Program-made: the position numbers and the translations under genes
Notes under the pieces: model-generated
What the model was told of the DNA's origin: nothing
Seen by the model: only the letters and a program-made list of their open reading frames with translations
Database searches by the model: none
Shown here: piece by piece, positions 5,401-58,996 of the stretch
Position numbering within the stretch: position 1 is the stretch's first letter
How the letters are laid out: the number at the start of each line of letters is the position of its first letter
DNA from: Methanomassiliicoccales archaeon
Lineage (GTDB): Archaea; Thermoplasmatota; Thermoplasmata; SG8-5
DNA: 64,000 nt
NCBI GenBank assembly: GCA_030612505.1
Contig: JAUWNU010000001.1
Span: forward strand, 1,233 to 65,232
Direction: 5' to 3'

Positions 5401-8383
5401 ATGGACCTTCGCAGGTGTCACGGCAGGAACCGATACAACATTCTATCTCGAAGCCTATCGCACCAATCTGGATGCCGAGAACATGGAATTCTATTACTCG
5501 ACTTCAGGAAGCGGAAGTGTAAGCACCTGGACACCGATGTTTGATGTGACAGCTACATCAGATCCAGGCCCCCCTGGCCAAACATTTTCAGATGCAATTC
5601 TGGATGCATATACTGGTACGCTCTATGTCGGTGTAATAGATGCCTCATCTGGAGATACAAATCAGGACACAATTTACATTGACCACATGTATTTCAGGGC
5701 ATCTGGCTCAGCATTACCATCGGATTTCGGATTTGATGTTGCCAACATGGGCAATATAAATGACGATGGCAGTGGCACGCCGGACATAGCGATAACCGAC
5801 CCAACTGGCAATAATGGATATACCTATATTTGGGAAGACGGCAATTTCGAAGGCTCATCATCAAGGGAAGATACAGATTTGGCACATTTCACAGCATCTG
5901 GAAGCAGTCTGGCGGACGGAAGCAATCCGAGTAATAACATATTTGCCACATCTGGTGGGGACTTGAATTTGAGTGCTAATATAATCTTTGAAGATGATTT
6001 TGAGGATGACTTTGCAGGGCAGGACCCAGATGATCCACCATGGGGCATACCCACAGAAGACGCTGGTACGAATGTAGAGATAAGCGGCACTGTGAGTCAA
6101 GGTGGTTCTCAGTCCATGATGCTTGACGATGATGCAAGTGCTGATACAACTGGATGTAGCATCGTATCCGATAATTTTGCAGCTACAACGGCAGGTGTGA
6201 TAGAATTCTGGGCCAGATGCACTGACCAGGTAAGCGCCAGTGAACAGTTTGTCATATCCGCCAGAAGTGGTACAACTGATGCAATCCTGGTTGGATTCAT
6301 GGAAGATAGTTTCTGTTATGAGATCGGTACTACAGTCACAATATTTGGTTCATATACACAAAGCCAGTGGTATCATTTTAAGCTTGTATTCGATGCCGCA
6401 ACAGTTACATATGATTATTACATAGATGATGTTTTGAGGTGGGATGATCTTGATTTTACAAATGCTGTGGCTAGCATCAACAACATTGAGATCACAACAA
6501 AACCTTTCAATTTTGTTCCTGATCGTGGTGCCACTCAAGCACTGGGCTACATAGATGATATAATAATATATGAGCCATATGACACCCCAGGCTATTACAC
6601 ATCGTCAACGACCACAGCACCTGGTTACATAACAGCTGTTAAACCATTTTGGAATCTTACAACCCCCGGCGGAACCACAGCCTGGCTCAACATATCAAGG
6701 GATGGCGGCATAACATGGAATCAAAGTGCTTTGACAAATGGCTATTGGTACACCTTCCCAAGTGAGGGTATTGGCAAGGAGCTGTGCTATAAAATTGAGA
6801 TGTCAACCACCAATACCATCACCCCAGTTTTGCAGGATGTCACTCTCTATTACAAATATTGCACACCCGCGAGTATTACATTCACTGGAACTGGTTCTGG
6901 AGACAAGTTCGGCTTCTCGGCAGCTTCAGCTGGAGACATTGATGGTGATGGCATCGATGATTTACTGGTCGGGGCACCTTATAATGATACTGCCGACGGC
7001 ACCAACCCAAATGGCGGGGGCGTATTCGCCTTCTGCGGCGGAGCCTATTTATCTGGCACGATTAGCGCCAGCAATGCCAATTACACCTTCTATGGCGGTA
7101 CAGCAGGTGATATGCTGGGCTATTCAGTTGGAACGATTGGCAACTTCAACAGCCACGGTAATGATGATGTAATAGTCGGAATACCGTTCAACAATTCCAA
7201 TGCTGGCTCTGCGATTGCGCTTTCCATCGCACTGCCAATGAAGACTGCGGTATCCTTCACAGTCGAAGAGCACGGCCTTGAGCCAGAAGCCAAAGTAAAT
7301 ATATCCTGGACAAAGGTAAACGGAGCCACAAAATACAATATTTACCGCTCCGATACTCCGTGGGGATTTGACTTTGGCACACCCGATGCCACTGTGGACG
7401 CGCCAGCCCTTTCATGGGTGGATACAAATGCTCCCAGGAACACTGCCAACCCTCACAACGCCACTTCGTATTATTATGCGGTAAGGGCGGAGAATGCGCT
7501 GGCCGAGAAAGGTCCGTACAAGATATTTGCCATTCACAGGATGGACCTGGTGGACCAATGGAATTTCATCACCTGGTTGTCCAATGAGACCATGGACATT
7601 GAAACTGAAGCATTTGCCAATTTGGAGGCTGATGATGGAGCCAACCCCACCACATTCATTTACGACAAAGTTGAGAGATGGGACCCGGCTAGCCAGGCTG
7701 ATTGGGAATCTTATACCACAGACGGCGATCTCGGCCCCTTCTCTGACATGGCGCCTGGTTATGCCTATGCCATCAATTGCCGGGTTGACGCGGTCTGGAC
7801 TTACGTTGAGGACTGCGGTGTTCCATCCATCTCCACCGCAGATGATTCAGCTCTGGCCGCACCCGGGAGCTTCACGCTGGCGAGGAACGGTGCGAATCCA
7901 AGCCATGTGGACCTCAGCTGGAATACTGTGGCAACCGCAGACCATTACAATATCTACCGCTCTTTCACAAAGTGGGGCTTTGATTTCAACAACCCGATCC
8001 ACAGCACTGCCGACGGTGCGGTGACCAGCTGGACAGATACCACATCCACCCAGGAGAACGGGGCCTACAATGCATCTGTTTATTACTATATCATAAGAAC
8101 CGTGGATGCCAGTGGAGATATCGAGAAGAACCTGAATGCCGCCGCCATGCACAGAATGGACTTCAGGAACGGAATCAACTACATGAGCTGGACACCACAC
8201 GAGACAGTGTCGGAGGAAACGGCACTGGCAAGCCTTGTTCCCTTTGTCGATTACATCTCGGTGGAGCAATGGGATGAATCGACCCAGGTCTTTAACCCGG
8301 CGGTAGCCAACTTCGAAAGGGGATATGGATACGGGATCAATGCAATACAGGCCTGCACCTGGACATATGTAGAATATGCATGA
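2402..8383 (+). CDS. Giant secreted protein (1993 aa) with FG-GAP/integrin-alpha-like repeats, internal repeated beta-sandwich domains, and FN3-like domains at the C-terminus
   Basis: N-terminal signal/TM (KLVSFVIVLSMVCMTALPLA). At least 6 FG-GAP repeats (FGWNVSKAGDVNGDGIDDFIVGAP, FGWDVADAGDVNGGNVDIIIGEP, FGKAGPGAGNTDDSGNADVIVGAP, FGSSVSSAGNTDGVGGTEVVIGEP, FGFSAASAGDIDGDGIDDLLVGAP, LGYSVGTIGNFNSHGNDDVIVGIP). Two FN3-like modules (NISWTKVNGATKYNIYRS and DLSWNTVATADHYNIYRS). RBS GAGGTGAG at 2388-2395. Confidence 0.85.
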   Translation: MKFSTDRWAVKLVSFVIVLSMVCMTALPLATGDDLFEIASGEGDSGAGTTSNFGWNVSKAGDVNGDGIDDFIVGAPNADYLAVTDCGAAFIYFGYDGIQDADLNASNANVSIYGTAASGHFGWDVADAGDVNGGNVDIIIGEPDNGNGKAYIYYGSGAMSATMTTADADVTITGEASGDDFGKAGPGAGNTDDSGNADVIVGAPEADSAKGAAYIFYDSSMAAAIAAGNADVIMNGKHTDGKFGSSVSSAGNTDGVGGTEVVIGEPGSDRAYVYYPPSDQTANADDPVFGTVGNDYTYTQSSNNGYEIIEEEAGAGGRVDLWGTHDMTTGIPTGWSDYDAGGSVSANTWFALAAPTTPPTQGDAPVIWINWELPYNNRALETEAFDFATYSGVEMNFEHFMNAAYLDDLHLEWDNTGGGAGGTWNLIQTWTADGTWTDWTIRNAIDCSAVDGLSDVRFRFRYEATDGNSNGIDYVKVTGNEPTTSKLEHKWTIPVTTGGTFYIEANRTDKLEGDTLNFYYSLTGTGTVGDTGAGWVSMMSQITIPTNGDPNSYQTYSDSTLDTFTGTLYIGVVDADRTSGLTLKDVLCVDHMFVRGIPFKELVGERITQNTDYTATADSAVSGTVTPSTDGYQKTQATDDDYESIQEISVAATYDYDYTTDEWFTQSDSHTNDHTATQVQGGNTEDIVELSVPGAPVPTTETRYMRGDQHTINTLTAYQLGTTQSSTARSSLLEQTGAGGGTVNWGIRVWGIDSDGTETEITSGTPVAQVSRATAGEGIQSNTWACPQTGITDTDAIVVRVYAELSGVIAWTEQAEFISEQLGATLLEDVTWTVYYYTQYATVSGGAPGGRYTRGWFHWGDAAHDSRIDNFVWSVPGPAHYSLEQKWQFTDTPLAASQYEFHAFVGWDGAGAGDDTFEYWYSTTGADPVGGAGWTLMFTDSTSAVNEQTFDLDNDGYTGGALYVGVIDTDSSGDGQDTLIVDYLYVETVITPAYSSLEHKWTFAGVTAGTDTTFYLEAYRTNLDAENMEFYYSTSGSGSVSTWTPMFDVTATSDPGPPGQTFSDAILDAYTGTLYVGVIDASSGDTNQDTIYIDHMYFRASGSALPSDFGFDVANMGNINDDGSGTPDIAITDPTGNNGYTYIWEDGNFEGSSSREDTDLAHFTASGSSLADGSNPSNNIFATSGGDLNLSANIIFEDDFEDDFAGQDPDDPPWGIPTEDAGTNVEISGTVSQGGSQSMMLDDDASADTTGCSIVSDNFAATTAGVIEFWARCTDQVSASEQFVISARSGTTDAILVGFMEDSFCYEIGTTVTIFGSYTQSQWYHFKLVFDAATVTYDYYIDDVLRWDDLDFTNAVASINNIEITTKPFNFVPDRGATQALGYIDDIIIYEPYDTPGYYTSSTTTAPGYITAVKPFWNLTTPGGTTAWLNISRDGGITWNQSALTNGYWYTFPSEGIGKELCYKIEMSTTNTITPVLQDVTLYYKYCTPASITFTGTGSGDKFGFSAASAGDIDGDGIDDLLVGAPYNDTADGTNPNGGGVFAFCGGAYLSGTISASNANYTFYGGTAGDMLGYSVGTIGNFNSHGNDDVIVGIPFNNSNAGSAIALSIALPMKTAVSFTVEEHGLEPEAKVNISWTKVNGATKYNIYRSDTPWGFDFGTPDATVDAPALSWVDTNAPRNTANPHNATSYYYAVRAENALAEKGPYKIFAIHRMDLVDQWNFITWLSNETMDIETEAFANLEADDGANPTTFIYDKVERWDPASQADWESYTTDGDLGPFSDMAPGYAYAINCRVDAVWTYVEDCGVPSISTADDSALAAPGSFTLARNGANPSHVDLSWNTVATADHYNIYRSFTKWGFDFNNPIHSTADGAVTSWTDTTSTQENGAYNASVYYYIIRTVDASGDIEKNLNAAAMHRMDFRNGINYMSWTPHETVSEETALASLVPFVDYISVEQWDESTQVFNPAVANFERGYGYGINAIQACTWTYVEYA

Positions 8384-15454: not shown

Positions 15455-15464
15455 AATATAAAAG
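15455..15464 (-). promoter_or_regulatory. TATA box (TTTATATT on the minus strand) for the aIF1A-RIO1-KH operon
   Basis: AT-rich octamer 24-33 nt upstream of the aIF1A start codon, consistent with leaderless archaeal transcription. Confidence 0.5.
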
Positions 15465-15748
15465 ATGTACTGGAGTATTTTTGTGAAATTATCTGCGCTG
15501 GCTCACTGAACATGTCCGAGCAGGATGCGCGAATTCTTTCGGAATTCAAGCCAGTAACACCCATGCGATTTGTGAGTGTTACTGTCGAACCTTCAGGTTT
15601 GCGGATGAAGCGAGGAATGGTTCAGTATCAGGGCTTCTCTGGGTTTTAACCCAGAGAAGTGCTTCCCACTCTAAGAATTCCGTTAGACATCCCTGAATAT
15701 CATTGATGACAGTATAACCAATTTTCATATGTCATTCAATGTAAAACT

Positions 15749-15818
15749 GATAGGGATGCCGCTGCTTTCGGGCGTTAACCCGAAAGCAGACCACCCTTTA
15801 GGGTTGGGGAGCCCTCAC
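15749..15818 (+). repeat. Copy 1 of a approx. 70-nt GC-rich hairpin element (GATAGGGATGCC-GCTGCTTTCGGG-cgttaa-CCCGAAAGCAGACC-ACCCTTTAGGGTTGGGGAGCCCTCA)
   Basis: Near-identical to 27855-27921. The linked motif GAACCTTCAGGTTTGCGGAT at 15586-15606 also recurs at 27761-27781. Confidence 0.7.
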
Positions 15819-16222
15819 CTTTCGCAAAAAGAAATATTCGGTAAAGAAAAACTCCAGGTGAGTCCTGCTCGATAATTTGAATGGCCAGAAAGGTTATTTC
15901 ATTGAAAGAAATATCTTGACTGGGGAAAGAGAATGCGCGGGAAGAAGATACGGGCTCCTGCATCGGGGAAGGCCAGTGTCTGCTATTGTCTTCAGCATAA
16001 CCTCCCTGGGCGCTTTGATGGCATTCGGGTGAAGTGAGAGTTAATTGACCCGAAAATTAATTACGGCACAAAGAAATCTCCTGGTCGAGGAAAGGGCCTC
16101 CAGGTGAGTTTTTGGAAACTTTCAAGATCTCTCTCCAGCCCAGGGGCTCCCTCAAAAACTCGGGGAAAAGGTTTTATTCGTTCCGGCAATGTCTGACCTT
16201 CAATAACTTGGAGTTGACTTGA

Positions 16223-20252: not shown

Positions 20253-21011
20253 TTACTTACCCTGTATCTTCTGCAGATTATTTGCCCGTCTATTGTAGTT
20301 CAGGGCTTCTGCTTCATGGTTCTTGCTGCGTTCCAGTAATGCCTTTGCCTTCTGGCGTTTGGCTGCTGCCTTCTGTGTGTTCTTGGCAGAATTTGACATC
20401 CAGCTGCTGGATTTGCTCTTCATCCTTGCTGCTTTGGTCTTGAGTTTCGCAACCCTCACCCTGGTGCGCTCTGCCTTTCCGTCCTCAAGATATTCCAGAT
20501 CTGCCTGTTTATCATCGGCCTTGGCCATTGCATTCTTGCCTTTTTCGATGTATCTTTCGGCTTTACGCCTGGCCTTATTAGAATTTTCCTGGTACTTGAT
20601 CATGGCAGCTTCCTCTGTCATGTATTTTTTGAAAAGCTTTGCTTCCTCCGCACTGTGTTTGGCTGCCCTCTGCCTGAGAATTGTAACATCATGATATTCA
20701 GCAGCCCGCATCTTGTCATGTCTGGTATGGGCAATTTCAGCCTCAATATCTTTTTCCTGTTTTGGCTCTTCAGTCAATTCTTCTGATTCTGATGTGCTGG
20801 GTGTTTCATCTGCCGGCATCAAATAATCATGGGAATATGCTGCTTTCGAGTCATCATTCGAAAGCAGAGCCGCACTCTCCTTTTTCACTGGAGGAAGTTC
20901 TTCTTTCATCTGCGATTGCGAAGTTTCCTCTTCTTTCTTCTTACTGATGGCCTTTCCACCGCCATAGAATATCTCATCTTCCTCTTCCAAATCTGAGCTC
21001 ATAATTATCAA
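20253..21011 (-). CDS. Highly charged K/E/A-rich low-complexity protein (coiled-coil-like), hypothetical
   Basis: Long ORF with biased composition and an acidic N-terminal segment. Confidence 0.4.
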   Translation of the reverse strand: MIIMSSDLEEEDEIFYGGGKAISKKKEEETSQSQMKEELPPVKKESAALLSNDDSKAAYSHDYLMPADETPSTSESEELTEEPKQEKDIEAEIAHTRHDKMRAAEYHDVTILRQRAAKHSAEEAKLFKKYMTEEAAMIKYQENSNKARRKAERYIEKGKNAMAKADDKQADLEYLEDGKAERTRVRVAKLKTKAARMKSKSSSWMSNSAKNTQKAAAKRQKAKALLERSKNHEAEALNYNRRANNLQKIQGK

Positions 21012-23856: not shown

Positions 23857-24102
23857 ATGAACGAAGAAGCATTAATTAAAATTAAACAGGCATTGGATAA
23901 TTCCATATGCCCCCATGGCTGCAAATGCTATCGAATTAAGCCGGATGAGATATGCAAGGCCAGGGTAACCGATCTAGAAAATCTATTGGAATGCCTTGAG
24001 GATGAACCAGAACACTGCACATTCTCAATGGCCTTCGGCGGCATATATTATTGCAAGTGTCAGGTGAGAATCGAATTGGCAAAAATTTTGAATGAATCAT
24101 GA
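23857..24102 (+). CDS. Small Cys-rich protein (8 Cys; possible metal-binding), start uncertain
   Basis: CPHGCKCY...C..C...CKCQ pattern. The ORF track gives a longer AT-rich N-terminal extension that is probably non-coding. Confidence 0.3.
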   Translation: MNEEALIKIKQALDNSICPHGCKCYRIKPDEICKARVTDLENLLECLEDEPEHCTFSMAFGGIYYCKCQVRIELAKILNES

Positions 24103-24339
24103 TTTAGAAATAATTTCTTCGCTAGCCTTTTTCAGACCGCCAGGGCCTTTAGCCAGTACAAAATTCAACCCAACTTTTTCTGCAACCAGTCTATCGCTTT
24201 CAAAGTCCCCTACAAACCAGGATTTTGCATAGTCAATGTCATACTTATCATTGACCTTGTCGAACATGAAGATTATGGCATGGATGCCTTTTTTGAACGG
24301 TTCTTTTCTTTTAATCATGAGAATACCGAATTTAGCCAA
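24097..24339 (-). pseudogene. Chimeric remnant: 5' end similar to the adjacent membrane-protein gene (MIKRKEPFKKGIHAIIF) fused to a 3' fragment of a gmhB paralog
   Basis: C-terminal FDKVNDKYDIDYAKSWFVGDFESDRLVAEKVGLNFVLAKGPGGLKKASEEI versus GmhB FDQVNEKYDVDYANSWFVGDFESDREIAERMGLRFKLARGDGGLRKAVEEI. About 75 percent nucleotide identity. The HAD catalytic DxD N-terminus is missing. Confidence 0.7.
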
Positions 24340-24766
24340 TTTCTATGCAATCATGGTCATCTGTTTTCACCAAGTCCAATATGAACAAAACGAGATTCAA
24401 TACCTGTATTGCTACGATAATCGTAACCAGGGCGTAAAGCAGCCTTTCATTCTCTATGGTAGCGATGGTAAAAATAAATGCAAATACAAAAGGAATGGCA
24501 AAAGTAGCCCCCGCAAGCCTCACCACTAATTCATATTTCTGGATTTTTTCTTTATCCCGGTTCTTGATATCCAATTTGTAGGCGTAATAAAAACACAGAC
24601 CCATCAGGAAGAGAGAGATAAATACCAATATTACCCAGAACACCTGATTAAAAGAATTGTCTGGGCCAAGCCGAATAAATAAAAAGAGGATACCCAATAA
24701 AACAACACCGTACATGATGATTATGGCATGGATGGCTCTTTTAAAGGGTTCTTTTCTTTCGAACAT
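24332..24766 (-). CDS. Small membrane protein (4 TM), hypothetical
   Basis: N-terminus MFERKEPFKRAIHAIII shared with the chimeric remnant. Hydrophobic helices. Confidence 0.5.
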   Translation of the reverse strand: MFERKEPFKRAIHAIIIMYGVVLLGILFLFIRLGPDNSFNQVFWVILVFISLFLMGLCFYYAYKLDIKNRDKEKIQKYELVVRLAGATFAIPFVFAFIFTIATIENERLLYALVTIIVAIQVLNLVLFILDLVKTDDHDCIEIG

Positions 24767-24802
24767 GGAAATCCTACCTTTGACTTTCTAACCTCGCAAC
24801 TA

Positions 24803-25300
24803 TCAACCTATAATGTTTTTCAGTATTTCTTCAACCGCCTTCCTCAACCCGCCGTCGCCCCTTGCCAGCTTGAACCTCAATCCCATTCTCTCCGCTATCT
24901 CCCGGTCGCTTTCAAAGTCCCCCACAAACCATGAATTTGCATAGTCCACGTCATACTTCTCATTGACCTGGTCGAATAATCCAGTTTCAGGCTTTCTGCA
25001 TTTGCAATTGTCCTCTGGAGCATGGGGACAGTAAAACACTTCCTCCACAATTCCGCCGCCTTCCTCTATCTCGAAAAGCATATTGTTGTGAATGACCTCA
25101 AGTCCCTCTTCTGTCAAGAGTCCCCGGCCAATTGGTGACTGATTGGTAATAATAATAATCTTGTAGCCAGCTCCAGATATTTCTGCTATGGCCTTTATTG
25201 CGCCTTCCAGGAACTCAAATTCTGGCCATGAAAGTACATACTTCCCAAGCTCGAGACGGTTAATGACTCCATCACGGTCCAGAAAGACAAATTTATCCAC
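24803..25300 (-). CDS. gmhB: D-glycero-D-manno-heptose 1,7-bisphosphate phosphatase (HAD-IIIA, GmhB)
   Basis: FLDRDGVIN motif I. HAD-IIIA size (165 aa). Operon with gmhA, hddA and hddC. Confidence 0.8.
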   Translation of the reverse strand: MDKFVFLDRDGVINRLELGKYVLSWPEFEFLEGAIKAIAEISGAGYKIIIITNQSPIGRGLLTEEGLEVIHNNMLFEIEEGGGIVEEVFYCPHAPEDNCKCRKPETGLFDQVNEKYDVDYANSWFVGDFESDREIAERMGLRFKLARGDGGLRKAVEEILKNIIG

Positions 25301-25886
25301 GCCTGGCCAACTCCTCTTCCTTGAGCATTAGAGTTGTCAAATGGTCAACAAGCATGTGTATGTCTTCGGTTTTCTGCATATTGTGAACTGGCACAATGAG
25401 GCATAAATCTACCATATCCTTAATCTTGCCGCCGTCAAAGCCAGTTATTCCCACAGTGGTCCCATCATTCTCGTTTGCATAGCTTATTGCCCGCAGCACA
25501 TTCTCGGAATTTCCGGAGCCAGAGATTCCAACAACAATATCCCCCGGTTCCATGAGATTCTTCAATTGCTCTATGAAAATGTCCTCATAACATGAATCAT
25601 TACCCCATGCCAGCATCTGTGGAATATTATCCGCAAGACTCAGTACCTTAAAACGAGGTACCCCTTCAACAATTGTGCCTTTGGCCAGGTCGCTGGTGAA
25701 GTGAGAAGCTGTTGAAGCACTTCCACCATTGCCGCAAAAAAATATTTTGCGATTATCTGCCCTGGCTTCCATGAAAATGGTGGCCAGTTGGTCAAAAAAA
25801 TCTGCATTATTCACCTTGATATCCTCAAGTATCCGGATAATATCGTTCAGGTAGTCGTTTATAAATTTTTCACGGAATTCATTCAT
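25293..25886 (-). CDS. gmhA: Phosphoheptose (sedoheptulose-7-phosphate) isomerase GmhA (SIS domain)
   Basis: SIS motif FFCGNGGSASTASHFTSDL. About 195 aa. Confidence 0.85.
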   Translation of the reverse strand: MNEFREKFINDYLNDIIRILEDIKVNNADFFDQLATIFMEARADNRKIFFCGNGGSASTASHFTSDLAKGTIVEGVPRFKVLSLADNIPQMLAWGNDSCYEDIFIEQLKNLMEPGDIVVGISGSGNSENVLRAISYANENDGTTVGITGFDGGKIKDMVDLCLIVPVHNMQKTEDIHMLVDHLTTLMLKEEELARRG

Positions 25887-25890
25887 TTTA

Positions 25891-26901
25891 TCAATCTCCG
25901 TTGATTATTGTGGCGCCTTTTTTATCGAAATGGAAGTCCAGCGGGCTTAAACCTTCCTTCACCATGGCCTTGGTAACTGCTTTCTGATGCGGTTTATCAC
26001 AATACACCATGAAGTAACCTCCGCCACCTGCACCTGTGAGCTTACCGCCAAGTGCGCCGTTCTTCTTGGCCAGTTCATACATCTTATCGATTCTGGGATT
26101 AGAAATACCCTTGGCTAGATTTTTCTTGAACTGCCATGATTCGTCCAGAAGTCGCCCGAACTCATTCAGGTCTCCAGACTCTAGAGCCTTCTTAACCTCA
26201 AAAGCTATCTCTTTAATTTTATGAAGTGACTCAACAACTTCTCCCTTATCATCTCTTGTAGATTTATCCTGGCTCTTGAGAATCTTTGAGGACTCGCGGG
26301 TTCTGCCAGTGAAGAAGAGCATGATATCATCCTCCATGCGAACACGAACTTCCCTGGCTATATTGAGAGGTTCAACTTCCACAGTTCCATCTTTATTAAA
26401 TTGCATGAAATTTACACCGCCAAAGGCAGCAGCATACTCATCTTGCTTGCCAATTGGCATCTTCAGTTCATTGTATCCAATATCATATGCCAGTTCAGCT
26501 ATTTCCTGCTTTGTGAGTTTTAATCTCTCAAGCTCATTAATGATATTGATTATATTTACTGTCACAGTGCCAGATGAACCTAATCCAGTGCCCGGCGGAA
26601 TCTCACTTGCCATGAATATATTAAGGCCGCGCTGAACATTAAAATGCTTTAGAACAGCAACTGGAATATCAAGCCCTTTTCCCAGCTTCAGGTCATAAAA
26701 ATCCTTCACAGTATGATGAACCTGCAAATCCGAAGAAATGAGCTGAATTCGGTCATCCAGTCTTATCTCTAGAATGGTGTAAAAATACTTGTTTATGGCT
26801 GCGCTTACAACAACTCCACCATACTTCTCGTAGTATGATGCTAGGTCTGTCCCGCCTCCGCCAAAGCTTATTCTTACTGGTGAACGACTAATCAGTGTCA
26901 T
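25891..26901 (-). CDS. hddA: GHMP kinase, D-glycero-D-manno-heptose 7-phosphate kinase (HddA-type)
   Basis: GHMP motif PPGTGLGSSGTVTV. Context between gmhA and a nucleotidyltransferase. Confidence 0.75.
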   Translation of the reverse strand: MTLISRSPVRISFGGGGTDLASYYEKYGGVVVSAAINKYFYTILEIRLDDRIQLISSDLQVHHTVKDFYDLKLGKGLDIPVAVLKHFNVQRGLNIFMASEIPPGTGLGSSGTVTVNIINIINELERLKLTKQEIAELAYDIGYNELKMPIGKQDEYAAAFGGVNFMQFNKDGTVEVEPLNIAREVRVRMEDDIMLFFTGRTRESSKILKSQDKSTRDDKGEVVESLHKIKEIAFEVKKALESGDLNEFGRLLDESWQFKKNLAKGISNPRIDKMYELAKKNGALGGKLTGAGGGGYFMVYCDKPHQKAVTKAMVKEGLSPLDFHFDKKGATIINGD

Positions 26902-27589
26902 TTATTTCCCTTCTGGCCAGTTCCAGTCCTTCTGGGGTTCCTATATCATAGAACCTCTGGCTGGTCAATAGTCCAAAAAGGCGACCTGTATTTATTAATT
27001 TTGGGAATATGGATTCCTCCAGGGAAAATATACGTCCAGGCGCATAATCCAGTATATCTCTGCTGAAAAGTGAAAGTCCGGCTTCCAGGCCGTTCATTGA
27101 GTCCGGCGAATTCTTCTTGATATAGTCCATTATTCGCCCATCTGGCATTATGCGAGTATTGTTTGGCGCGATATTGTCATTGTTCAGATAAATTGAAATT
27201 ACACCCTGGGCATCATTCTCCTCCTGAACTCTTGCCAGATGCCTTAATTCCAGCGGTAAATAACTATCTCCAAATGCAAAGAAGAATTTTTCGTCAAGCA
27301 AATGCCTGGCATTCAGCAGAGCGCCTCCGGTTCCCAGAGGTTCAAGCTCCACAGAATGAACTATTTCAACACCATGCTGGCTGCCGTCTCCAAAATGCTC
27401 TTCAATATGCTCATGAAGATGGCCGGTGCAGAACACGAATTTCTGAATGCCTTGGGCTTTGAAATATTCAACCAGTATCTCCAGAAAAGGACGCTGGCCG
27501 AAGGGAATCATTGACTTGGGAATGTCATATGTTAATGGATGAAGCCTTGTTCCCAGGCCACCGCAAAGAAATACTGCCTGCTTTACCAT
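26888..27589 (-). CDS. hddC: Sugar-1-phosphate nucleotidyltransferase, D-glycero-D-manno-heptose 1-phosphate guanylyltransferase (HddC-type). Start set at MVKQAVFLCGG; the longer ORF-track N-terminus runs into the repeat element.
   Basis: AVFLCGGLGTRLHPLTYDIPKSMIPF (GGxGTRL signature). About 230 aa. Confidence 0.75.
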   Translation of the reverse strand: MVKQAVFLCGGLGTRLHPLTYDIPKSMIPFGQRPFLEILVEYFKAQGIQKFVFCTGHLHEHIEEHFGDGSQHGVEIVHSVELEPLGTGGALLNARHLLDEKFFFAFGDSYLPLELRHLARVQEENDAQGVISIYLNNDNIAPNNTRIMPDGRIMDYIKKNSPDSMNGLEAGLSLFSRDILDYAPGRIFSLEESIFPKLINTGRLFGLLTSQRFYDIGTPEGLELARREINDTD

Positions 27590-27721
27590 AATATCACTTG
27601 TAAACCACCAGGCCTTAAAATATTTGGCGTTCTTATTCATGCCTGTATGTTTCCAAAAGGCCAGTCGCACACCTAACTTCTCGGAACTATCGGTTCCGAG
27701 TTTATTAAACACGCGCCACAC

Positions 27722-27785
27722 CCTAATACCGCTGCTTTCGGGTATGGCCCGAAAGCAGAGCAACCTTCAGGTTTGCGGATACAGG
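27722..27785 (+). repeat. Partial copy of the hairpin element (GCTGCTTTCGGGtatggCCCGAAAGCAGAG) fused to the GAACCTTCAGGTTTGCGGAT motif
   Basis: Shares both sub-motifs with the 15586-15818 region. Confidence 0.65.
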
Positions 27786-27838
27786 GTGCTCATCAAAATG
27801 ATATATTTCATTTTATTGGATTGGCGTGTTTTTAATAA

Positions 27839-27921
27839 GGGCTCCCAGGTATCCGATAGGGATACCGCTGCTTTCGGGCGTTAACCCGAAAGCAGACCAT
27901 CCTTTAGGGTGGGGAGCCCTC
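27839..27921 (+). repeat. Copy 2 of the approx. 70-nt hairpin element, here embedded in an outer inverted repeat GGGCTCCC...GGGAGCCC
   Basis: GATAGGGATACCGCTGCTTTCGGGCGTTAACCCGAAAGCAGACCATCCTTTAGGGTGGGGAGCCCTCA, more than 90 percent identical to 15749-15818. Confidence 0.7.
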
Positions 27922-27965
27922 ATTTGATTAGAAATGTACGGTATGCGACGATCATTCACGCGTTA

Positions 27966-28916
27966 TTATTTGGAATATACATAGGGATTTTCCAATAGCC
28001 AGCGCACTGTTCTGCGAATCGTTTCCTCAATATTAACCTGTGGTTTCCAGCCATATGCCATAAGCTTCGAAACGTCCAGATGAACAAGGGGAGAATCACC
28101 AATCCAGCCACGCTCTCCTCCAGTGAACTTGTACTCAACATTATTCAGACCTAGCTCATCAGTAATAATGTCTGCCACGCTCTTCACTTCTATGAACTCG
28201 GTCTGGCCGATATTGAATAGCTCGGCATTGCCAGGGGTATTTTCATACCCAGTGAAGAAGCCGTCAATGCAATCGCCGATATAACAATAAGATTTTCTTG
28301 CTGTTCCATCGCCCAGTATTTCCAGCTGGGCAGGGTTAGCTTTCAGCTTTTTCACGAAATCATAGGTCACACCATGGGGGTGCCGCTCTCCCTGAATTGA
28401 AACAAAGCGATACATCCAGCTTTTGATTCCATATGCCTCGGTGAATGCTTCAATAAAGCCCTCGCAGGCCATTTTTGATGCACCATAGAATGAGGTTTGC
28501 CTTGGGTGATAAGTTTCAGGTGTTGGAAATACATCCGGCTCCCCATAAGTTGCCGCTGTTGAACTGAAAATTATCTGTTTCACATCATTGAGCCGCATTG
28601 CCTCCAGAATATTGTAAGTGACTATGATATTCCTGTCTATATCTCGAAAGGTGTCCTCAAGTCCATGACGCACATCAGCATTTGCAGCCAGATGGAATAC
28701 CGCATCAGCATCTTTCAGCGCATCCTTGGTCTTCTCCATGTCTCCCAGGTCGAAATTTAGAAGCTTGACAGCATCTTTGTCCAGGTGATGTTGAATATTT
28801 TCTATATAGCCAGTGCTCATATTATCTATAATTGTAACATCATGCCCCTGCTTGACCAGACGGTCAACAACATGGCTGGCAATGAACCCGCATCCTCCTG
28901 TGACTATTGCTTTCAT
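27966..28916 (-). CDS. NAD-dependent epimerase/dehydratase (extended SDR; UDP-glucose 4-epimerase-like or heptose epimerase)
   Basis: N-terminal MKAIVTGGCGFIASHVVDRL (GxxGxxG), the YxxxK catalytic region, and ITGYENTPGNAELFNIGQ. Confidence 0.8.
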   Translation of the reverse strand: MKAIVTGGCGFIASHVVDRLVKQGHDVTIIDNMSTGYIENIQHHLDKDAVKLLNFDLGDMEKTKDALKDADAVFHLAANADVRHGLEDTFRDIDRNIIVTYNILEAMRLNDVKQIIFSSTAATYGEPDVFPTPETYHPRQTSFYGASKMACEGFIEAFTEAYGIKSWMYRFVSIQGERHPHGVTYDFVKKLKANPAQLEILGDGTARKSYCYIGDCIDGFFTGYENTPGNAELFNIGQTEFIEVKSVADIITDELGLNNVEYKFTGGERGWIGDSPLVHLDVSKLMAYGWKPQVNIEETIRRTVRWLLENPYVYSK

Positions 28917-28961
28917 AATATCATGGGTGAGTAGTTGTTGTGGTTATTATGGATTTCGATG

Positions 28962-29115
28962 TTTAGGGTCTAGCTTAATTAACTCTGATAATGGGTCTAG
29001 GGTCTGCGTTTAGTCATCGTTATTAAGGGTCTGTGCTTAATTATCGTTAGTTAGGGTCTTTGTTTAATTATCGTTAGTAAGGGCCTATGCTTGGCTATCG
29101 TTAGAGAGGGGCTAG
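28962..29115 (+). repeat. Tandem array of about 5 copies of a 27-bp repeat (consensus AGGGTCTNTGNTTAATTATCGTTAGTT) followed by hairpin GTTGAACGCaagGCGTTCGAC
   Basis: Head-to-tail units with no spacers, visible directly in the sequence. The same family occurs at 12859-13078 and 63751-63895. Confidence 0.8.
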
Positions 29116-29378
29116 TTCGTTGAACGCAAGGCGTTCGACAATGGCATGAGAACGCATTCAAAATAAATGGAATGCCGTACTGTTAAAAGTGTTCTGAAAG
29201 CAATTGTTGGGTTCGATGGCTAAATAAAAACAAATGCAGAACCCGACCTGATATGGCTTAAAGCAATCTGCCAGCATAATATCAGAAGGCCCGCAATCAC
29301 ACTTGCGTTAAAAAAACGATTGCGGTGGTGCACAAGTTGGTCTTTTATCCGAAACATATATAATCACGTATATTCGTA

Positions 29379-31774: not shown

Positions 31775-34700
31775 GTGATTATACATATTATGTCCAATAC
31801 AAAGTTAAAGGTGTTCATAATGGAGAGGAAAGATGTTTTTGTGCGCGGCCTTTCGATTGTTCTTGTAATATCAATGGTTTTTGGTTCAATACCATATTTC
31901 ACAATGGCCTCGGAGACCGTAGGCCAGATTGATATTGAAGTGACTAATCAAGAATTGGCAACCTATAATCTGGCTGTTTCCGAAATAGAGCTCAAGGAGA
32001 TTATTCCTGTTGAGGAAAATCAGGGTTCGCCGGCGCCAAGCCCATTTGCCACATTTGAGATTATGTATGCGGATTCGGCTATTGATCAGGGTGCTGGAGC
32101 AGTGCCCGAGGCAACTGGCACTCCTGATGATGTTCGCTTTTCATTCGGTGGAAATGCAAATTATGTAAGAGCTAGCGGCTCTACCTGGGGAGCTGGAGCA
32201 GGCTCAATCCTGTCAGTGGAAATCGCAGCAGAATGGTCATCTAGTGGTCTGACTGATGATGGTGCAATTATCCAGTATTATGATTCTGGAATTGGCGGCG
32301 TGGGAGCCACAAAGACAGCTGTGGATGCAAACAACTATGCTGTTGATAACACACTCTATCTGGACATAACCGCAGACAAGGCTAGCTGGACCTGGACTGA
32401 TGTGGGTAATGTCAACCCTGAGATATATTACCTCAAAGCCGGAGGCCCGGACGGCGGAACTCTAAGCATTGATGCACTCTGGATACGGGTACAATATGAA
32501 TCCATTTCAATTGACTATGATATCCCTGTGACCGTTGGCTGGAACCTTATAAGCGTTCCTTCGGTACAGGGAAACACCGACATTCTCACAGTACTGGATG
32601 ATGCTGGCGGCGATACTACCTGGGAGAGAGCTTCACATTACAATCCCCTGATAGCTGATAATCTATGGCAGTCCTATTCTATTTTCAAACCACCTACCCT
32701 GAATGAGCTGAACGATGTGAACAATAAGCTTGGCATCTGGGTGGACATAACAGATGTGGGAAGCGATGGCCTTCTCACAGTAAGCGGCAGCCCGCCTTCC
32801 ATGACTGCAATCAATCTCTATGCAGGCTGGAACCTTGTTGGGTATCCCTGCTTGGAAAGCCAGATGGCTATGAATTCACTGGCTGGCGTACCATACGATG
32901 CTCTGGAATGCCATGATGGTGGAGCACCATACCTACTCAGAACAATGCTGAACACAGAAATGATGGTTCCCGGTATTGGTTACTGGATAAAGGTAACCAG
33001 CGATTGTGTATGGAATGTGGGAGACATTACACCACCTACATTTGCAGGTCTTGTTTCTGCCCTGGATGCTGGAACCGGAGGAAGCGTTCTGCTGAACTGG
33101 AATCCGGCAACAGACCCCTCATACCCCATTACCTACAATATTTACATGGCCACAACATCTGGCGGCCAGGACTTTGGAACTCCGGATTATATTACAGACC
33201 TGACAGATTTCCAGGTTGATGGTTTGACAGACAATCAGGACTATTATTTCGTGGTAAGGGCAAAGGACTCTGCTGGCAATGAGGATTCAAACCTGGTTGA
33301 GAAAACAGCAATTCCAACAACACCAGATGCTACAAGCCCCTGGATAACAGCAACTGTTCCTGCAGATGCAGCAACAGGAATCGGCATTGCCCAGTCAATT
33401 ATAATTACCTTTTCAGAATCAATCAATACAGGTACATTCGTTTATTCCTGCGCACCCAACCCAGGCGGTTGGATAGAAACATGGGATACATTTGTGGAAA
33501 CAAATGATAGAGTAACCCTGACCCGCAATGACCTGGCTTTCGACACATTGTACACATTCCAGGTAACAGCAGCGGATGACCTGGCAGGCAATCCCCTGGT
33601 TGCCGGACCGGCACTGAACCCATGGACATTCACGACTATTGCAGCCCCAGACCTTACAGGACCAGTAACTTCTGGAGTATCAGCAACACCCAATCCCACC
33701 GATGGTGCTGGCACAGTCACATTAACAGCAACTGTTGATGATTCAACCACTGGCGGCTCTAATATTGCAGAGGCAGAGTACTTCGTGGATTCAGTAGGCG
33801 CTGACGGAAGTGGAACACTAATGGTAGCCAGTGATGGAAATTTCAACTCTGTGACAGAGGGCGTAACCGCTTCAATTGATGTTTCTGGATGGGCGCTGGG
33901 AACCTACACCTTGTATGTGCACGGACGGGATGCTTCAGGAAACTGGGGTGCTACAGACAGTACAATACTAGATGTCACCAATACACCTGATATCACAAGC
34001 CCCTGGATTGTAATAACAGCACCGGTGGACGGAGCAACTGGCGTATTAATTGGCCAGTCAATTGTAATTACTTTCTCGGAATCAATTAACACAGGCACAT
34101 TCGCCTACACCTGCACACCGAACCCAGGTGGCTGGGGCGAATCCTGGGACGCTGCAGTCGAGACCAATGACAGAGTAACATTAACCCACAGTGACTTTGC
34201 ATTTGACACATTATATGATTTCCAGGTAACAGCGGCAGACGACCTTGCTGGAAATCCCCTGGCAGCCGGACCAGTTCCGAACCCCTGGACATTCACAACC
34301 GAGCTGGAACCGACACCACCACAGGTTGTAGAGCCAACTTCACCTGCAAACGGAGCAATAGATGTGCCAGCCACATCAAACATCCAGATAACTTTCACAG
34401 AGGCCATGAACGAGGCATCTGTGGAATCCTGGTTCAATATTAATCCGGCAACAGCAGGAACATTCTCATGGAATCCAGGCAGTACAATTCTCACTTTCAC
34501 ACCCACAGGAGACCTTGCATTTGACCAGGTATACACCGTGACGATTGACGGTCTGGTGGAGGACCAGGAAGCCGAGACACTGGACGGCGATTATGACGGC
34601 GTTTCCGAGGGAAGCCCGACAGATGATTATGCCTTCTCGTTCACAACGGAAGCGGCACCCACGCCGCCCCAGGTGGTAGAACCGACGAATCCGGCAAACG

Positions 34701-50917: not shown

Positions 50918-51062
50918 CTAAATTCCTCCCGACAACAAGATGACTAAAAAACGCCCCCTAACCTGACCCTGATGATGTTATACATGCAAAAAACTTTCTA
51001 TGAAAAAACAGCATGTTAAAAAGTAATATACTGGAAACGATAGAAAATCTAATTAAGAAGTT

Positions 51063-54000: not shown

Positions 54001-54605
54001 TGAATTACAAAAATGAAAGTGATGTAAATTTCATCCAAGTAACAATGAATCCTGGCTATTGGTTTGAATTGCCCGCTCATTTTCTGCCAACAATAATCGA
54101 GTATTATATTCAGGCTTTTGACATATCTGGCAACGAGGCAGCAACACAAACTTACAGCTTGGAAATAATTGACCCATCTGTTCCAGATACAATGCCACCA
54201 GAAGTATTGCTAGCAACTCCGACAGGAGATAATTTTCCCATCTCAACGAGTATTTCAGTTGTGTTTAGCGAATATATGAATACGACCTCTGTGGAAGGTG
54301 CAATATCGATTTCGCTAGACATTTCCTTTAGCAGTTCATGGGCTAATAATCAAACTTTAGTTCTATCATTCACTGGCAACCTTTCTTACGACACTACTTA
54401 CACAGTTACAATAGATTCGGGAGCAAAAGACCTGGCAGGAAATACTTTGGCAAGCGATTATTCGTGGCAGTTTACGACATTAGGTGAACCAGAGGTAGTA
54501 CAACCCACAGCATCTAATGATTGGGGCTGGATTGGGATTATAATCTTTCTGATTTCGTTTATTGCTTTAATTCTAATTCATGGAGTTTACAAAGAGGAAT
54601 TGTGA
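51063..54605 (+). CDS. Surface protein paralog 1 (1180 aa): signal peptide, 7 Asp-box (BNR) propeller blades, Ig-like domains, Big_5 domain, C-terminal TM anchor
   Basis: Asp-boxes SEDAGRTWTE, STDNGETWS, STDGGKTWNS, SLDGGSIWEA, SFDDGQTWNG and SFDGGVTWQS. Big_5 segment PPEVLLATPTGDNFPISTSISVVFSEYMNTTSV. Ends GWIGIIIFLISFIALILIHGVYKEEL. Confidence 0.85.
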   Translation: MSYIHYMCGKRVSVILSIILVIILILPVVNLSANKPEQKPTPKMNPVNNEAFGFPPGWSDDIQLTFIPGLGSNVRASMITNRDVIHIVWENMTDGHIGYCRSEDAGRTWTEPRIITSGNVAGNPRIAINGSHIHVVYEKDTGFTSEIMYQNSTDNGETWSLPVMLSLNDGVWCAIPDIAVDGDNIHAVWEDEDASGPGIYEIIYRNSTDGGKTWNSQVQLTNYPGGSDASAKIAINESVVHVVWGRFVTATGSFETMYRRSLDGGSIWEAEMQITKPGSGHSYAPDLAVNGSNVYAIWMDSRDGSWETYINTSFDDGQTWNGEIRLTDVDGRNSFGAHVGVWNETVYVVWGDPRDDYPYPEAHEAYMNYSFDGGVTWQSSNERLQFALNNSGPNDIALTENYIHVVMKDNRTGKREIYYKRYPDFQTDTTAPSIVHTPIPNTPIGQLINITAKVSDNVALSEVWLNYTGINGTNYNVSMTGWDQKKVMVSGLGQTLYAQDGNYSFEIPAQNGVGVVSYYIWAEDVEGNFKNSPWGGSYFVQVTGPPSIEVTNPVGGEIWTGGSNHQIEFTASDSEDDPANLTVFLNYTSGAGGAIAILQGNQTPYSWTLPTINAIDVKVNATVVDRDGNKAYGDSEMFEIDTSLPEAVSTMPANGTTGVFIYQSVVIQFNEPMNTSTVTAAQTGGIDPGSWSWFWNVDKDTITGIHDAWSRGDIIEITVQPNYKDDSDQGNANSTSCVFSFTTETNPSPEIVHTNISSPQELGDEIRINATITDDSTVMNAVLWWQDIDGVWHENYMSKNGDDWEYWIPGQMAEGKISYQINATDDLQQKNTTIIYEFNVEDTTPPVIVHTPVESVLINESINITCQVSDLGGANASAVYLFYKCAGETDYTQVTMNPGFWYEIPAQSIPTTIEYYLLASDFYGNNASTSLYSFDVIDTSIPDTTPPVIAHTPVESAVIGESINISCQVIDLDGVDIVYLNYKNESDVNFIQVTMNPGYWFELPAHFLPTIIEYYIQAFDISGNEAATQTYSLEIIDPSVPDTMPPEVLLATPTGDNFPISTSISVVFSEYMNTTSVEGAISISLDISFSSSWANNQTLVLSFTGNLSYDTTYTVTIDSGAKDLAGNTLASDYSWQFTTLGEPEVVQPTASNDWGWIGIIIFLISFIALILIHGVYKEEL

Positions 54606-58957: not shown

Positions 58958-58996
58958 GCTATCCCCAGATATTCCATCAACGCTTTCTCTCGTTCT

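Follow-up and report, generated by a model that had tools for sequence, protein, structure and literature searches.

What are the GC-rich hairpin clusters that recur at about 15.7, 27.7 and 27.9 kb in this genome? The DNA analysed, called the window below, is a 64,000-nucleotide stretch of one contig. A first-pass annotation had described a unit of about 70 nt, and offered a small RNA family, a MITE-like element or protein-binding sites as explanations. In ISfinder usage, a palindrome-associated transposable element (PATE) is a gene-less derivative of an IS200/IS605 element, and the clusters are very probably pieces of two such non-autonomous derivatives in a Thermoplasmata archaeon. Read like this, they are a fresh case of familiar selfish DNA, and neither a novel RNA nor a regulatory system. 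The conserved GC-rich stems are transposon ends with accreted hairpins, and do not mark an RNA class, a riboswitch or the boundary of an island.

Structure of the repeated clusters

Repeated GC-rich clusters do exist, as three copies (15749-15818, 27722-27785 and 27839-27921) that share a hairpin called H2, a second hairpin and a tail. The H2 stem, CTGCTTTCGGG/CCCGAAAGCAG, is found at 15762-15789, 27732-27758 and 27868-27895, and has 11 bp where 12 had been counted, because the twelfth G lies opposite an A. An alignment of copies A (15756-15818) and C (27862-27923) has 4 differing columns out of 63, and BLAST aligns 15722-15843 with 27830-27943 (79.5% over 122 columns, E 2e-21). The 20-nt motif GAACCTTCAGGTTTGCGGAT has a perfect occurrence at 15587-15606 and another, one mismatch away, at 27761-27780, with 0.01 matches expected by chance; it is the homologue of the CCACCCTTTAGGGTTGG hairpin and no separate piece. 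The units are larger than 70 nt (Table 1). Copy A is not truncated at its 5' side; nested inserts interrupt its outer stem and first hairpin. The surrounding genome had been called AT-rich, and at about 44% GC the window is so only moderately.

Both elements have a left-end and a right-end domain. The left ends align from the first base after TTTAT (TAAACACGCG in element 2 against TGAACATGTC in element 1 and in a related copy, L055). The left domain of element 1 contains two extra nested hairpins (15532-15548 and 15553-15584), neither of them present in L055. The perfect hairpin at 15634-15659, nested in the right domain, is missing both from L055 and from copy C. Element 2 lies inside a composite insert that is preceded by TAAAC (27601-27605) and terminates in TATAC (27976-27980); the portions of this insert outside 27706-27923 contain no clear right-end hairpin.

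The folds are very stable. Copy C (27839-27923) is predicted to form a four-way junction at -54.8 kcal/mol (z = -6.8), the unit around copy B (27702-27838) reaches z = -8.0, and the two whole inserts z = -6.8 and -11.2. Comparison of nine end hairpins gives four stem positions with two or three Watson-Crick pair types.

Table 1. Features of the two probable elements and of their surroundings in the window
Feature	Position	Strand	Description
CTCAC, TAM-like target pentanucleotide	15502..15506	+	directly 5' of element 1; present once in the relatives' empty site
Element 1, probable A-type PATE, 312 nt	15507..15818	+	TGAACATGTC... to ...GGGGAGCCCTCAC; fold z = -6.8
Left-end domain, element 1	15507..15624	+	closing stem TGAAC/GTTCA, two nested hairpins, left subterminal hairpin
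Left subterminal hairpin (IP_L), element 1	15586..15609	+	CGAACC-TTCA-GGTTTG, then CGGATGAA; reported earlier as GAACCTTCAGGTTTGCGGAT at 15586
Right-end domain, element 1	15630..15818	+	interrupted cloverleaf: outer stem, H1, H2, right hairpin, CTCAC
Perfect 12-bp hairpin	15634..15659	+	CTTCTCTGGGTT/AACCCAGAGAAG; nested in right-domain outer stem
H1, element 1	15687-15693 / 15754-15760	+	AT-rich loop of roughly 60 nt
Right-domain parts, element 1	H2 15762-15789; right subterminal hairpin 15791-15807; terminal CTCAC 15814-15818	+	
30-nt in-frame insertion	20844..20873	+	in gene 20253-21011 (- strand); absent from L003 and L004
Composite insert, 375 nt	27606..27980	+	between epimerase and nucleotidyltransferase genes
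TTTAT, TAM-like pentanucleotide	27701..27705	+	directly 5' of element 2; read from sequence
Element 2, probable BC-type PATE, 218 nt	27706..27923	+	TAAACACGCG... to ...GGGGAGCCCTCAT; inside the composite insert
Left-end domain, element 2	27706..27838	+	copy B and surroundings
Left-domain stems, element 2	closing stem 27702-27719 / 27822-27838	+	inner stem CACCCT/AGGGTG
Left-domain hairpins, element 2	H2 27732-27758; left subterminal 27760-27776; AT hairpin 27795-27814	+	left subterminal hairpin GCAACC-TTCA-GGTTTGC
Right-end domain, element 2	27839..27923	+	copy C; intact cloverleaf
Right-domain stems, element 2	outer 27839-27846 / 27912-27919; H1 27848-27866; H2 27868-27895	+	
Right subterminal hairpin and terminus, element 2	27897-27912; terminal CTCAT 27919-27923	+	CCATCC-TTTA-GGGTGG

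Empty sites and other copies

Related genomes show what these loci look like without the elements. In two relatives with a 98% identical SAM synthetase (L052 and L053), exactly 15507-15818 is missing and a single CTCAC is kept: the relatives read GCGCTGG-CTCAC-CTTCCGC, and the window GCGCTGG-CTCAC-[312 nt ending CTCAC]-CTTTCGC. Element 1 is missing from all relatives examined, which also include L057, L058, L059 and L061. At the second locus, the empty site of L050 reads TGTAAAC|ATAGGG, compared to TGTAAAC|375 nt|ATAGGG in the window. The epimerase and nucleotidyltransferase genes overlap or abut in L050 and L056, and L056 has no spacer between them. Since the empty site retains the motif once at both loci, insertion took place 3' of a short motif and without target duplication. 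The MITE-like suggestion was thus right about mobility, both loci being insertions compared to close relatives, and wrong about the class, as inverted termini and clean target duplications are lacking.

The same empty sites bear on the idea that the two clusters are attL/attR repeats around an integrated island holding the block of genes from MAT to the heptose gene. The copies at 15.7 and 27.9 kb do have the same orientation, but relatives possess this block and neither copy, and an integrase is absent. A separate local empty site exists for each copy, which refutes the idea. The first-pass annotation had already rejected such an island, correctly, and we consider it next to impossible.

Further copies exist at other loci. 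Positions 4-232 of L055 hold a homologous element of the first type, between different flanks (84.7% identity over 163 columns). A second copy of element 2 lies on a 13.6-kb contig at NCBI, where it appears as a spurious ORF (P0027) whose homology to element 2 begins at LLNTRH (27702-27719) and stops at GSPHL (27912-27926). A diverged copy on L051, which ends in CTCAT, is a candidate member only (covariance model E 0.6). The order of the two domains is identical in four copies. A covariance model (R1), run on the window and 15 related loci, found no further copies, only hairpins resembling H2 and the weak candidate on L051. Scans for the exact hairpins in genome and metagenome contig collections gave unrelated bacterial hairpin families and no homologous copy, and such a scan of a viral contig collection gave no match. 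A match to the left hairpin on L066 and a spacer-tolerant match to the right end on L072 were set aside as apparent chance matches within coding sequence.

The elements do not code for proteins: peptide searches across them revealed no coding capacity, their only matches being spurious ORFs in other copies. When the six frames were concatenated into one peptide query, none of 8000 candidates was significant, and a minus-strand peptide query had no match. Three database entries (P0028-P0030) that a representative search brought up are unrelated tandem-repeat 'proteins'. Masking such elements in Thermoplasmata MAGs would keep false ORFs, among them the 48-aa and 57-aa 'genes' here, out of annotations, and would also correct over-extended N-termini, for example the 291-aa reading of the nucleotidyltransferase.

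The polymorphism among strains that are 85-98% identical, the nesting, and the splitting of a translationally coupled gene pair all point to active single-strand transposition in this lineage. The elements are also usable as strain-level markers.

Element ends and the link to a Y1 transposase

The two ends of the elements differ from each other. Element 1, element 2 and L055 all lack terminal inverted repeats, as TGAACATGTC.../...GAGCCCTCAC are not inverted copies. The right end, ...GGGGAGCC, has a terminus CTCAY that is kept at all these loci, as CTCAC in copy A and L055 and as CTCAT in copy C. As the left flank of L055 is ..TAC and not CAC, CTCAC is part of the element and no target duplication. 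The pentanucleotides of the left flanks vary (CTCAC, ..TAC, TTTAT and TAAAC) and do not support a single strict target. In L055 the left hairpin begins 21-23 nt inside the left end, and the right hairpin stops 10 nt before the right end; the spacing in the window elements is equivalent apart from the nested inserts. The left hairpins (GAACC-TTCA-GGTTTG) and the right ones (CCAYCC-TTTA-GGGT(T)GG) are alike, and lie on the same strand. Ends arranged in this way are those of the 'peel-and-paste' IS200/IS605 elements.

These ends are difficult to reconcile with a classical MITE, that is, a deletion derivative of an IS with a DDE transposase that makes 5-bp target-site duplications. At first sight, CTCAC on each side of element 1 and the 375-nt insert between TAAAC and TATAC look like such duplications. 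No copy has terminal inverted repeats, however, CTCAY is conserved across loci at the right end, and the left ..TAC of L055 is unlike its right CTCAC. The remaining 'duplications' are imperfect (TAAAC/TATAC and TTTAT/CTCAT). Checking the copies for target-site duplications, as had been proposed, thus yields none that are consistent, CTCAY belonging to the element. The right end, moreover, matches an element with a Y1 transposase and not one with a DDE transposase. We therefore regard a classical MITE as very unlikely.

The match to a Y1 element came from a scan for the right-end motif, which picked out three IMG/VR contigs (L063, L064 and L065) with AACAGCCTACTGGAAGCC-CCATCCTTTAGGGTGG-GGAGCCCTCAATTCAC. 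Over 26 nt, 27897-27922 is identical to the block in these contigs, which diverge immediately past TTCAC. In L063 and L064 the block begins right after the stop codon of a protein of 142-143 aa with a Y1_Tnp domain (PF01797, Pfam E 1.6e-39). This protein matches the TnpA structures of ISDra2 and IS608 at E about 1e-26, and is 45% identical to the tnpA product of ISH1.8/ISH12. At its left end (L067 908-1092, with conservation in L068) the transposon begins with TTTTAT, and TTTAT also precedes its conserved left-end block in both contigs, as it precedes element 2. This left end folds into a closing stem, a spacer, the hairpin CCCCGNNN-TTTA-NNNCGGGG, ATGAA and the other side of the closing stem. 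The left domain of L055 and the window module X-CGGATGAA have the same layout, and the hairpin-plus-ATGAA module at 15586..15609 matches the left end of this transposase-carrying element.

The correspondence is not complete. The hairpins of the elements have 6-bp stems, some with a bulged T, compared to 8 bp in the transposon, and on the right the transposon has a linker longer by 5 nt. The transposase-linked contigs have 51-57% GC and come from IMG/VR, outside this lineage. Guide pairing, judged by eye as an index-wise complement, fits 3/3 positions in L055 (GAATG/..TAC) and 4/5 in element 2 (TAATA/TTTAT); the right ends do not fit, and in three ends H2 occupies the position where a guide is expected. 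What these comparisons show is recent insertion, the architecture of the ends, and a transposase-carrying element to which each type of end is linked. From known Y1 systems we infer that a TnpA of this kind would be present in this genome and would act on these copies.

Proposed transposition and closest known systems

By analogy with IS608, ISDra2 and ISGst, a Y1 (HUH) transposase TnpA, encoded elsewhere, would bind both hairpins on single-stranded DNA. Its left cut would fall behind the flanking pentanucleotide and its right cut behind the terminal CTCAY. The excised strand would then be circularised and pasted 3' of a further YTYAY-like pentanucleotide, without duplicating the target. Everything else that folds, namely H1 and H2 together with the outer stems and nested hairpins, would be passenger or accreted structure that is dispensable for transposition. 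Of the earlier suggestion of protein-binding sites, what survives is that two hairpins are presumably bound by the transposase.

The closest known systems are the PATEs. Like these, the elements are gene-less, have no inverted termini, carry hairpins inside both ends on one strand and leave scar-free empty sites; they are inserted 3' of a short motif that resembles their own right terminus, and would depend on a Y1 transposase in trans. As an example, gene-less PATE-like copies of ISGst occur in Geobacillus stearothermophilus, where the TEM is TTCAC and differs from the TAM at positions 3 and 5 only (PMC10055086). The terminal motif here is CTCAY, unlike the TTCAC of the ISGst PATEs. Other differences from known PATEs are the uncultured Thermoplasmata host and the elaborate interior of nested hairpins, with a cloverleaf and a second junction. 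In addition, Pfam detected neither tnpA nor tnpB in the scanned window ORFs (10 ORFs outside 13-28 kb, plus the genes between 15.7 and about 27.4 kb), and the related autonomous element has no tnpB or guide RNA. A TnpB guide-RNA (omega RNA) scaffold was set aside as the nature of the folds, since that element has tnpA and a small variable ORF only.

IS608 is cleaved on the 5' side of its left hairpin, at a distance of 19 nt, and on the 3' side of its right hairpin, at 10 nt (PMC3201880). The elements share with IS608 and ISDra2 the asymmetric ends, with the left site about 19-23 nt 5' of the hairpin and the right site about 10 nt 3' (PMC3201880), and also the resemblance between left and right hairpins; in sequence, neither their hairpins nor their targets are related to those of IS608 (TTAC/TCAA). 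With classical MITEs they have in common that they are short, non-coding, intergenic and insertion-polymorphic between strains, while terminal inverted repeats and a consistent target-site duplication set those apart.

The case against an RNA

Very stable folds could also indicate a structured non-coding or cis-regulatory RNA family, for example a degenerate SAM-I-like riboswitch beside the SAM synthetase gene. There are compensatory changes in H1 and in the end hairpins, and G-T wobbles lean slightly to the + strand. However, the ends of single-stranded-DNA transposons predict equally stable hairpins. The Rfam covariance search that had been proposed as a check returned 0 matches at gathering score. 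Copy B matches SAM-I (RF00162) below threshold, scoring 26.8 bits (E 5e-4 for 351 nt) where 44.4 bits are required; in this match P1 is mispaired, the AGA core of J1/2 is missing, and copies A and C have no match in the SAM-I search. This match lies on the + strand between two sugar-nucleotide genes on the - strand.

The genomic context is also unfavourable. Both genes next to copies B and C run antisense to them. At 27.7-27.9 kb no same-strand gene lies downstream, and the next 2 kb hold no + strand gene. The copy 400 nt upstream of the SAM synthetase gene is absent in strains with a 98% identical enzyme, and no conserved promoter or terminator lies beside the copies. We find an RNA family most improbable, and the small-RNA option of the first-pass annotation is not upheld.

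Several more specific RNAs were considered. A tRNA-like cloverleaf was rejected, as ARAGORN finds none and the arms have 7, 11 and 5-6 bp with loops of 5, 6 and 4 nt. A C/D-box sRNA was also dropped as a reading of the AT-rich H1 loop: L055 has CCGA in place of the D box CTGA, and the snoRNA match in Rfam has E 1.5. Hammerhead and other ribozymes give no signal in Rfam.

H2 as a possible mobile hairpin

It is worth noting that H2 varies independently of the elements that contain it. It is found in the left domain of element 2 and in that of neither element 1 nor L055, and the P0027 copy lacks it in its right domain. Within the outer stem of element 1, a 26-nt hairpin similar to H2 is nested (15634-15659), whose apex GGGTTTTAACCC resembles the H2 apex GGGCGTTAACCC (covariance model 12.8 bits, E 0.16). 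The 30-nt insertion inside a gene at 20844-20873 likewise forms an H2-like hairpin, CTGCTTTCGA/TCGAAAGCAG (20840-20867; covariance model 25.0 bits, E 3e-5). Local fold-back repair was considered as its source and rejected, the arms not being copied from flanking sequence. H2 may insert beside the end hairpins of the transposon, and may have done so at least once in frame in a gene.

One could take this further and regard the 30-nt H2 and its relatives as the mobile units, like REP/BIME or GC clusters, with the larger elements as nested pile-ups. Such a family would have analogues in REPs, in the palindromic elements (RPEs) of Rickettsia and in the GC clusters of yeast mitochondria. REP/BIME and Rickettsia palindromic elements share with our elements the GC-rich hairpins, mosaic clusters, nesting in palindromes and occasional in-frame insertion, and REPs are mobilised by IS200-like tyrosine transposases, the RAYTs (PMC3733652, PMC3116915). 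However, the two-domain elements move as a whole, as seen from their constant order in four copies and a precise empty site, and are units of 218-312 nt with distinct ends, unlike a palindrome of 20-40 nt. The GTAG/CGTC tag of the family definition (PMC3733652) is lacking in H2 and its relatives, and no RAYT was seen in the window. The H2 sites show no common flank or duplication, and the known hairpins of H2 type number just five or six. As a reading of the whole this is rather unlikely, and any REP-like behaviour of H2 would supplement the PATE explanation without taking its place. It is conceivable, if doubtful, that H2 and its relatives (such as 15634-15659) form a second, independently mobile family of mini-palindromes in this archaeon, perhaps mobilised by the very Y1 transposase that would move the elements. 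What is modestly new in this locus is the independently varying 30-nt hairpin with an in-frame copy inside a gene, and nothing else; in bacteria, REPs inserted in palindromes and in-frame RPEs have been described (PMC3733652).

Insertion at two loci

Both elements are recent insertions relative to related strains, one in the spacer between the eIF-1A and SAM synthetase genes and the other at the junction of the epimerase and nucleotidyltransferase genes. The relatives compared (L003, L004, L050-L054 and L056-L062) were retrieved via near-identical proteins; an ENA contig, L001, is identical to the window. In the first spacer, GCGCTGG-CTCAC-CTTCCGC of L052 and L053 corresponds to GCGCTGG-CTCAC-[312 nt ending in CTCAC]-CTTTCGC in the window. 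Element 1 is also absent from L058, L061, L057 and L059. The epimerase and nucleotidyltransferase genes overlap in L050 and abut in L056, and in the window they are separated by an additional 375 nt (27606-27980). On the window's strand this junction is TGTAAAC/ATAGGG in L050 and TGTAAAC/insert ending in TATAC/ATAGGG in the window. The gene block from MAT to heptose is found in relatives that have neither copy, and the copies are therefore no island boundaries; the first-pass annotation, too, had called an integrated element not supported.

The eIF-1A/SAM synthetase spacer is a rearrangement hot spot, its length going strain by strain from 173 to 300, 381 and 791 nt. In L004 (4259-8608) and L057 it holds a pilus/archaellum-like operon of three genes, encoding a protein of 190 aa, an ATPase (T2SSE) and a membrane protein (T2SSF); the window (15464-15972), L052, L058 and L061 are without it. 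At 16029-16134 about 106 window-specific nt stand in place of the ATAG of L052 and L058; they repeat CTCCAGGTGAG, a motif of 15852-15862, and fold ordinarily (z = -0.25).

Architecture of the elements

Read directly from the window, the GC-rich hairpins lie where the first-pass annotation had placed them, and its repeated units of about 70 nt are genuine repeats, but they belong to larger two-domain elements. Hairpin H2 is shared by three sites as claimed, with a stem one pair shorter than the 12 bp reported since the twelfth G stands opposite an A. Copies A and C, described as more than 90% identical, differ at 4 of 63 aligned columns, and their similarity reaches further (15722-15843 versus 27830-27943). 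The 20-nt motif noted there as well is exact at 15587-15606 and recurs with one mismatch at 27761-27780, where 0.01 matches would be expected by chance. In an alignment of the three copies it sits in the same columns as the CCACCC-TTTA-GGGTTGG hairpin, and the two are therefore homologous, with compensatory differences. The fold of copy C is a clean four-way junction (-54.8 kcal/mol, z = -6.8).

Features of the two elements in window coordinates
Feature	Position	Fold or size	Contents
Element 1	15507-15818	312 nt	copy A (15756-15818)
Element 2	27706-27923	218 nt	copies B (27722-27785) and C (27839-27923)
Left domain		stem-closed junction	X-type (left subterminal) hairpin, then CGGATGAA
Right domain		cloverleaf, outer stem GGGCTCCC/GGGAGCCC	H1, H2, CCAYCC-TTTA-GGGT(T)GG hairpin, end CCCTCAY
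H2 stem	15762-15789, 27732-27758, 27868-27895	11 bp	CTGCTTTCGGG/CCCGAAAGCAG

Two more copies were recovered by searching protein databases with spurious ORFs that cross the elements. One lies at 4-232 of L055, a low-coverage contig from the same sample, with different flanks; the other is seen as the 95-aa ORF P0027 of an NCBI contig of 13.6 kb, with homology exactly from 27702 to 27926. A left domain followed by a right domain is common to all four copies, and copy A thus shows no truncation. A 26-nt hairpin (15634-15659) breaks its outer stem, its H1 loop holds an AT-rich insert of about 55 nt, and the left domain of element 1 has two additional hairpins that are absent in L055.

H2 varies independently of the rest. 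The left domain of element 2 contains it (in the window and in P0027), those of element 1 and L055 do not, and the right domain in P0027 has none either. The gene at 20253-21011 carries an in-frame 30-nt H2-like insertion (covariance model 25 bits, E 3e-5) that is found in neither L003 nor L004. Two origins are possible for H2: a second mobile hairpin similar to REPs, or templated repair. A REP identity for the elements themselves was rejected. Only the independent behaviour of this 30-nt hairpin might lead beyond what is already known.

Known RNA families

The Rfam search proposed in the first-pass annotation assigned no known RNA, with no match at gathering thresholds in the 64 kb, and ARAGORN found no tRNA in the same sequence. 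A permissive scan gave one notable sub-threshold match, SAM-I on copy B (26.8 bits against a threshold of 44.4). It was rejected: the P1 helix and J1/2 core are missing, the match is antisense to both adjacent genes, copies A and C have no match, and strains with a 98% identical SAM synthetase lack the copy near that gene. The elements are neither SAM-I riboswitches nor tRNA-like genes.

Element ends and the link to a transposase

The first-pass suggestion of a MITE-like element holds as far as mobility goes. A classical MITE was rejected, as no copy has terminal inverted repeats and the CTCAC pair of element 1 is not a target duplication: the terminal CTCAY is kept in copies at different loci, and the left flank in L055 (..TAC) differs from its right CTCAC. 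The pair is a target motif together with an element terminus of similar sequence. Counted from the base that follows the motif, the left boundaries line up (CTCAC/TGAACATGTC in the window, ..TAC/TGAACATGTC in L055, TTTAT/TAAACACGCG in element 2). In L055 the left hairpin starts 21-23 nt inside the left end and the right hairpin stops 10 nt before the right end; the corresponding distances in IS608, which inserts 3' of a tetranucleotide and excises without a scar, are 19 and 10 nt (PMC3201880). In Geobacillus ISGst, of which gene-less PATE-like copies exist, the terminal motif likewise resembles the target, being TTCAC rather than CTCAY and departing from the target motif at positions 3 and 5 alone (PMC10055086). 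Absent inverted repeats, end motifs and hairpin spacing are hallmarks of the IS200/IS605 single-strand transposons.

This prediction of IS200/IS605 identity was tested by scanning IMG/VR with the right-end motif. Three contigs carry AACAGCCTACTGGAAGCC-CCATCCTTTAGGGTGG-GGAGCCCTCAATTCAC, of which 26 nt are identical to window 27897-27922, and diverge directly past TTCAC. In L063 and L064 the block starts just 3' of the stop codon of a gene for a 142-143-aa protein. Pfam assigns this protein to Y1_Tnp, "Transposase IS200 like" (E 1.6e-39); among solved structures it matches the TnpA of ISDra2 and that of IS608 (E about 1e-26), and it has 45% identity to tnpA of ISH1.8/ISH12 from Halobacterium phage phiH. 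L067 and L068 have only two blocks in common. One is tnpA with the right end; the other, of 185 nt, lies about 400 nt upstream, begins with TTTTAT and folds into a closing stem, a spacer, the hairpin CCCCGNNN-TTTA-NNNCGGGG, ATGAA and the closing stem. The left domain of L055 is laid out in this way too, and the X hairpin with CGGATGAA in the window matches it. Among nine end hairpins, four stem positions show two or three Watson-Crick pair types. The window elements thus have, at both ends, counterparts in an IS200-type element of about 1.07 kb that carries a transposase. The transposase-linked copies are on IMG/VR contigs of higher GC, not on contigs of this lineage, and no tnpA was seen among the window ORFs scanned.

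The elements probably work like PATEs (gene-less derivatives) of the IS200/IS605 family, and their lack of inverted repeats and genes, end hairpins, insertion sites, terminal motif and transposase-linked ends agree with this. They belong to a known kind, here in an uncultured archaeal lineage and with an interior of unusually ornate hairpins.

In the IS200-type element of the IMG/VR contigs, the segment that separates the left end from tnpA (L067 1093-1499, L068 414-918) encodes a small Cys-rich ORF and cannot be aligned as DNA between the two copies; the tnpA protein is 96% identical, and the block of tnpA plus right end has 83% DNA identity. This segment is a variable passenger gene.

Proposed mechanism

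A TnpA encoded elsewhere in the genome would bind both hairpins on the + strand of single-stranded DNA, cleave after the left-flank pentanucleotide and after CTCAY, circularise the strand and reinsert it 3' of a similar pentanucleotide. As the element terminus resembles the target, head-to-tail pile-ups in a single orientation would be expected. In our reading, the layered insert at 27606-27980 (TAAAC/...TTTAT/element 2...CTCAT/...TATAC/) may be such a pile-up, and the similar sequences a short way 3' of each element (AGAAATATTCGGTA at 15831-15844, AGAAATGTACGGTA at 27930-27943) would also fit. Fitting less well, target motifs vary between insertions, and the flanking parts of the 375-nt insert hold no convincing right-end hairpin. 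As for pairing of guide bases with the cleavage sites, a comparison by eye gives agreement at 3 of 3 positions for the left end of L055 (GAATG with ..TAC) and at 4 of 5 for that of element 2 (TAATA with TTTAT), and none for the right ends; H2 stands where the guide would be expected.

Other regions

The heptose/sugar-nucleotide operon at 24087-29326 (phosphatase, SIS isomerase, GHMP kinase, nucleotidyltransferase, epimerase) is variable among relatives: L003 lacks the last two genes and L004 diverges after 24086. Mechanical ORF calling extends the nucleotidyltransferase too far, through element 2, to 291 aa (26888-27763, - strand); with the conserved start, an ATG at 27589, the protein has 233 aa. 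About 25 nt upstream of this ATG, within the insert, lies a TATA-like A/T-rich stretch, AAATATTTTAAGG (- strand, about 27615-27627), which could be a new promoter for this gene, formerly translationally coupled to the epimerase gene.

Relative to L050 there is a further insertion, of about 360 nt (28965-29326), upstream of the epimerase gene. It holds a 27-28-nt repeat four times in tandem (CTAACGATAATTAARCAMAGACCCTWA on the - strand) and ends in the hairpin CCGCAATC...GATTGCGG. Over its final 48 nt (29279-29326) it matches the end of L004 (16511-16558), at a different locus, with 100% identity, and the surrounding genes are only 82-88% identical. It is probably a second mobile element family. 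In L051, a possible diverged member of the present family (6917-6990, - strand; covariance model E only 0.6) directly follows the stop codon of a DUF4443 gene. It has a perfect hairpin of 12 bp with another sequence, GCAAATTTGACA/TGTCAAATTTGC, followed by the hairpin GCGCT-GTTT-AGCGC and by GGGGTGCCCTCAT.

Two giant ORFs (31775-37483, 1902 aa; 40991-50917, 3308 aa) probably encode surface proteins with repeated domains; the first has at least seven copies of a repeat of about 348 nt (34.3-36.8 kb, locally 54-55% GC). Within 50000-64000, three paralogous units of 4.3-4.7 kb stand in tandem, with 64-90% identity, each encoding a protein of about 1180 aa (51063-54605, 55406-58957 and 60099-63623), with small - strand ORFs between them.
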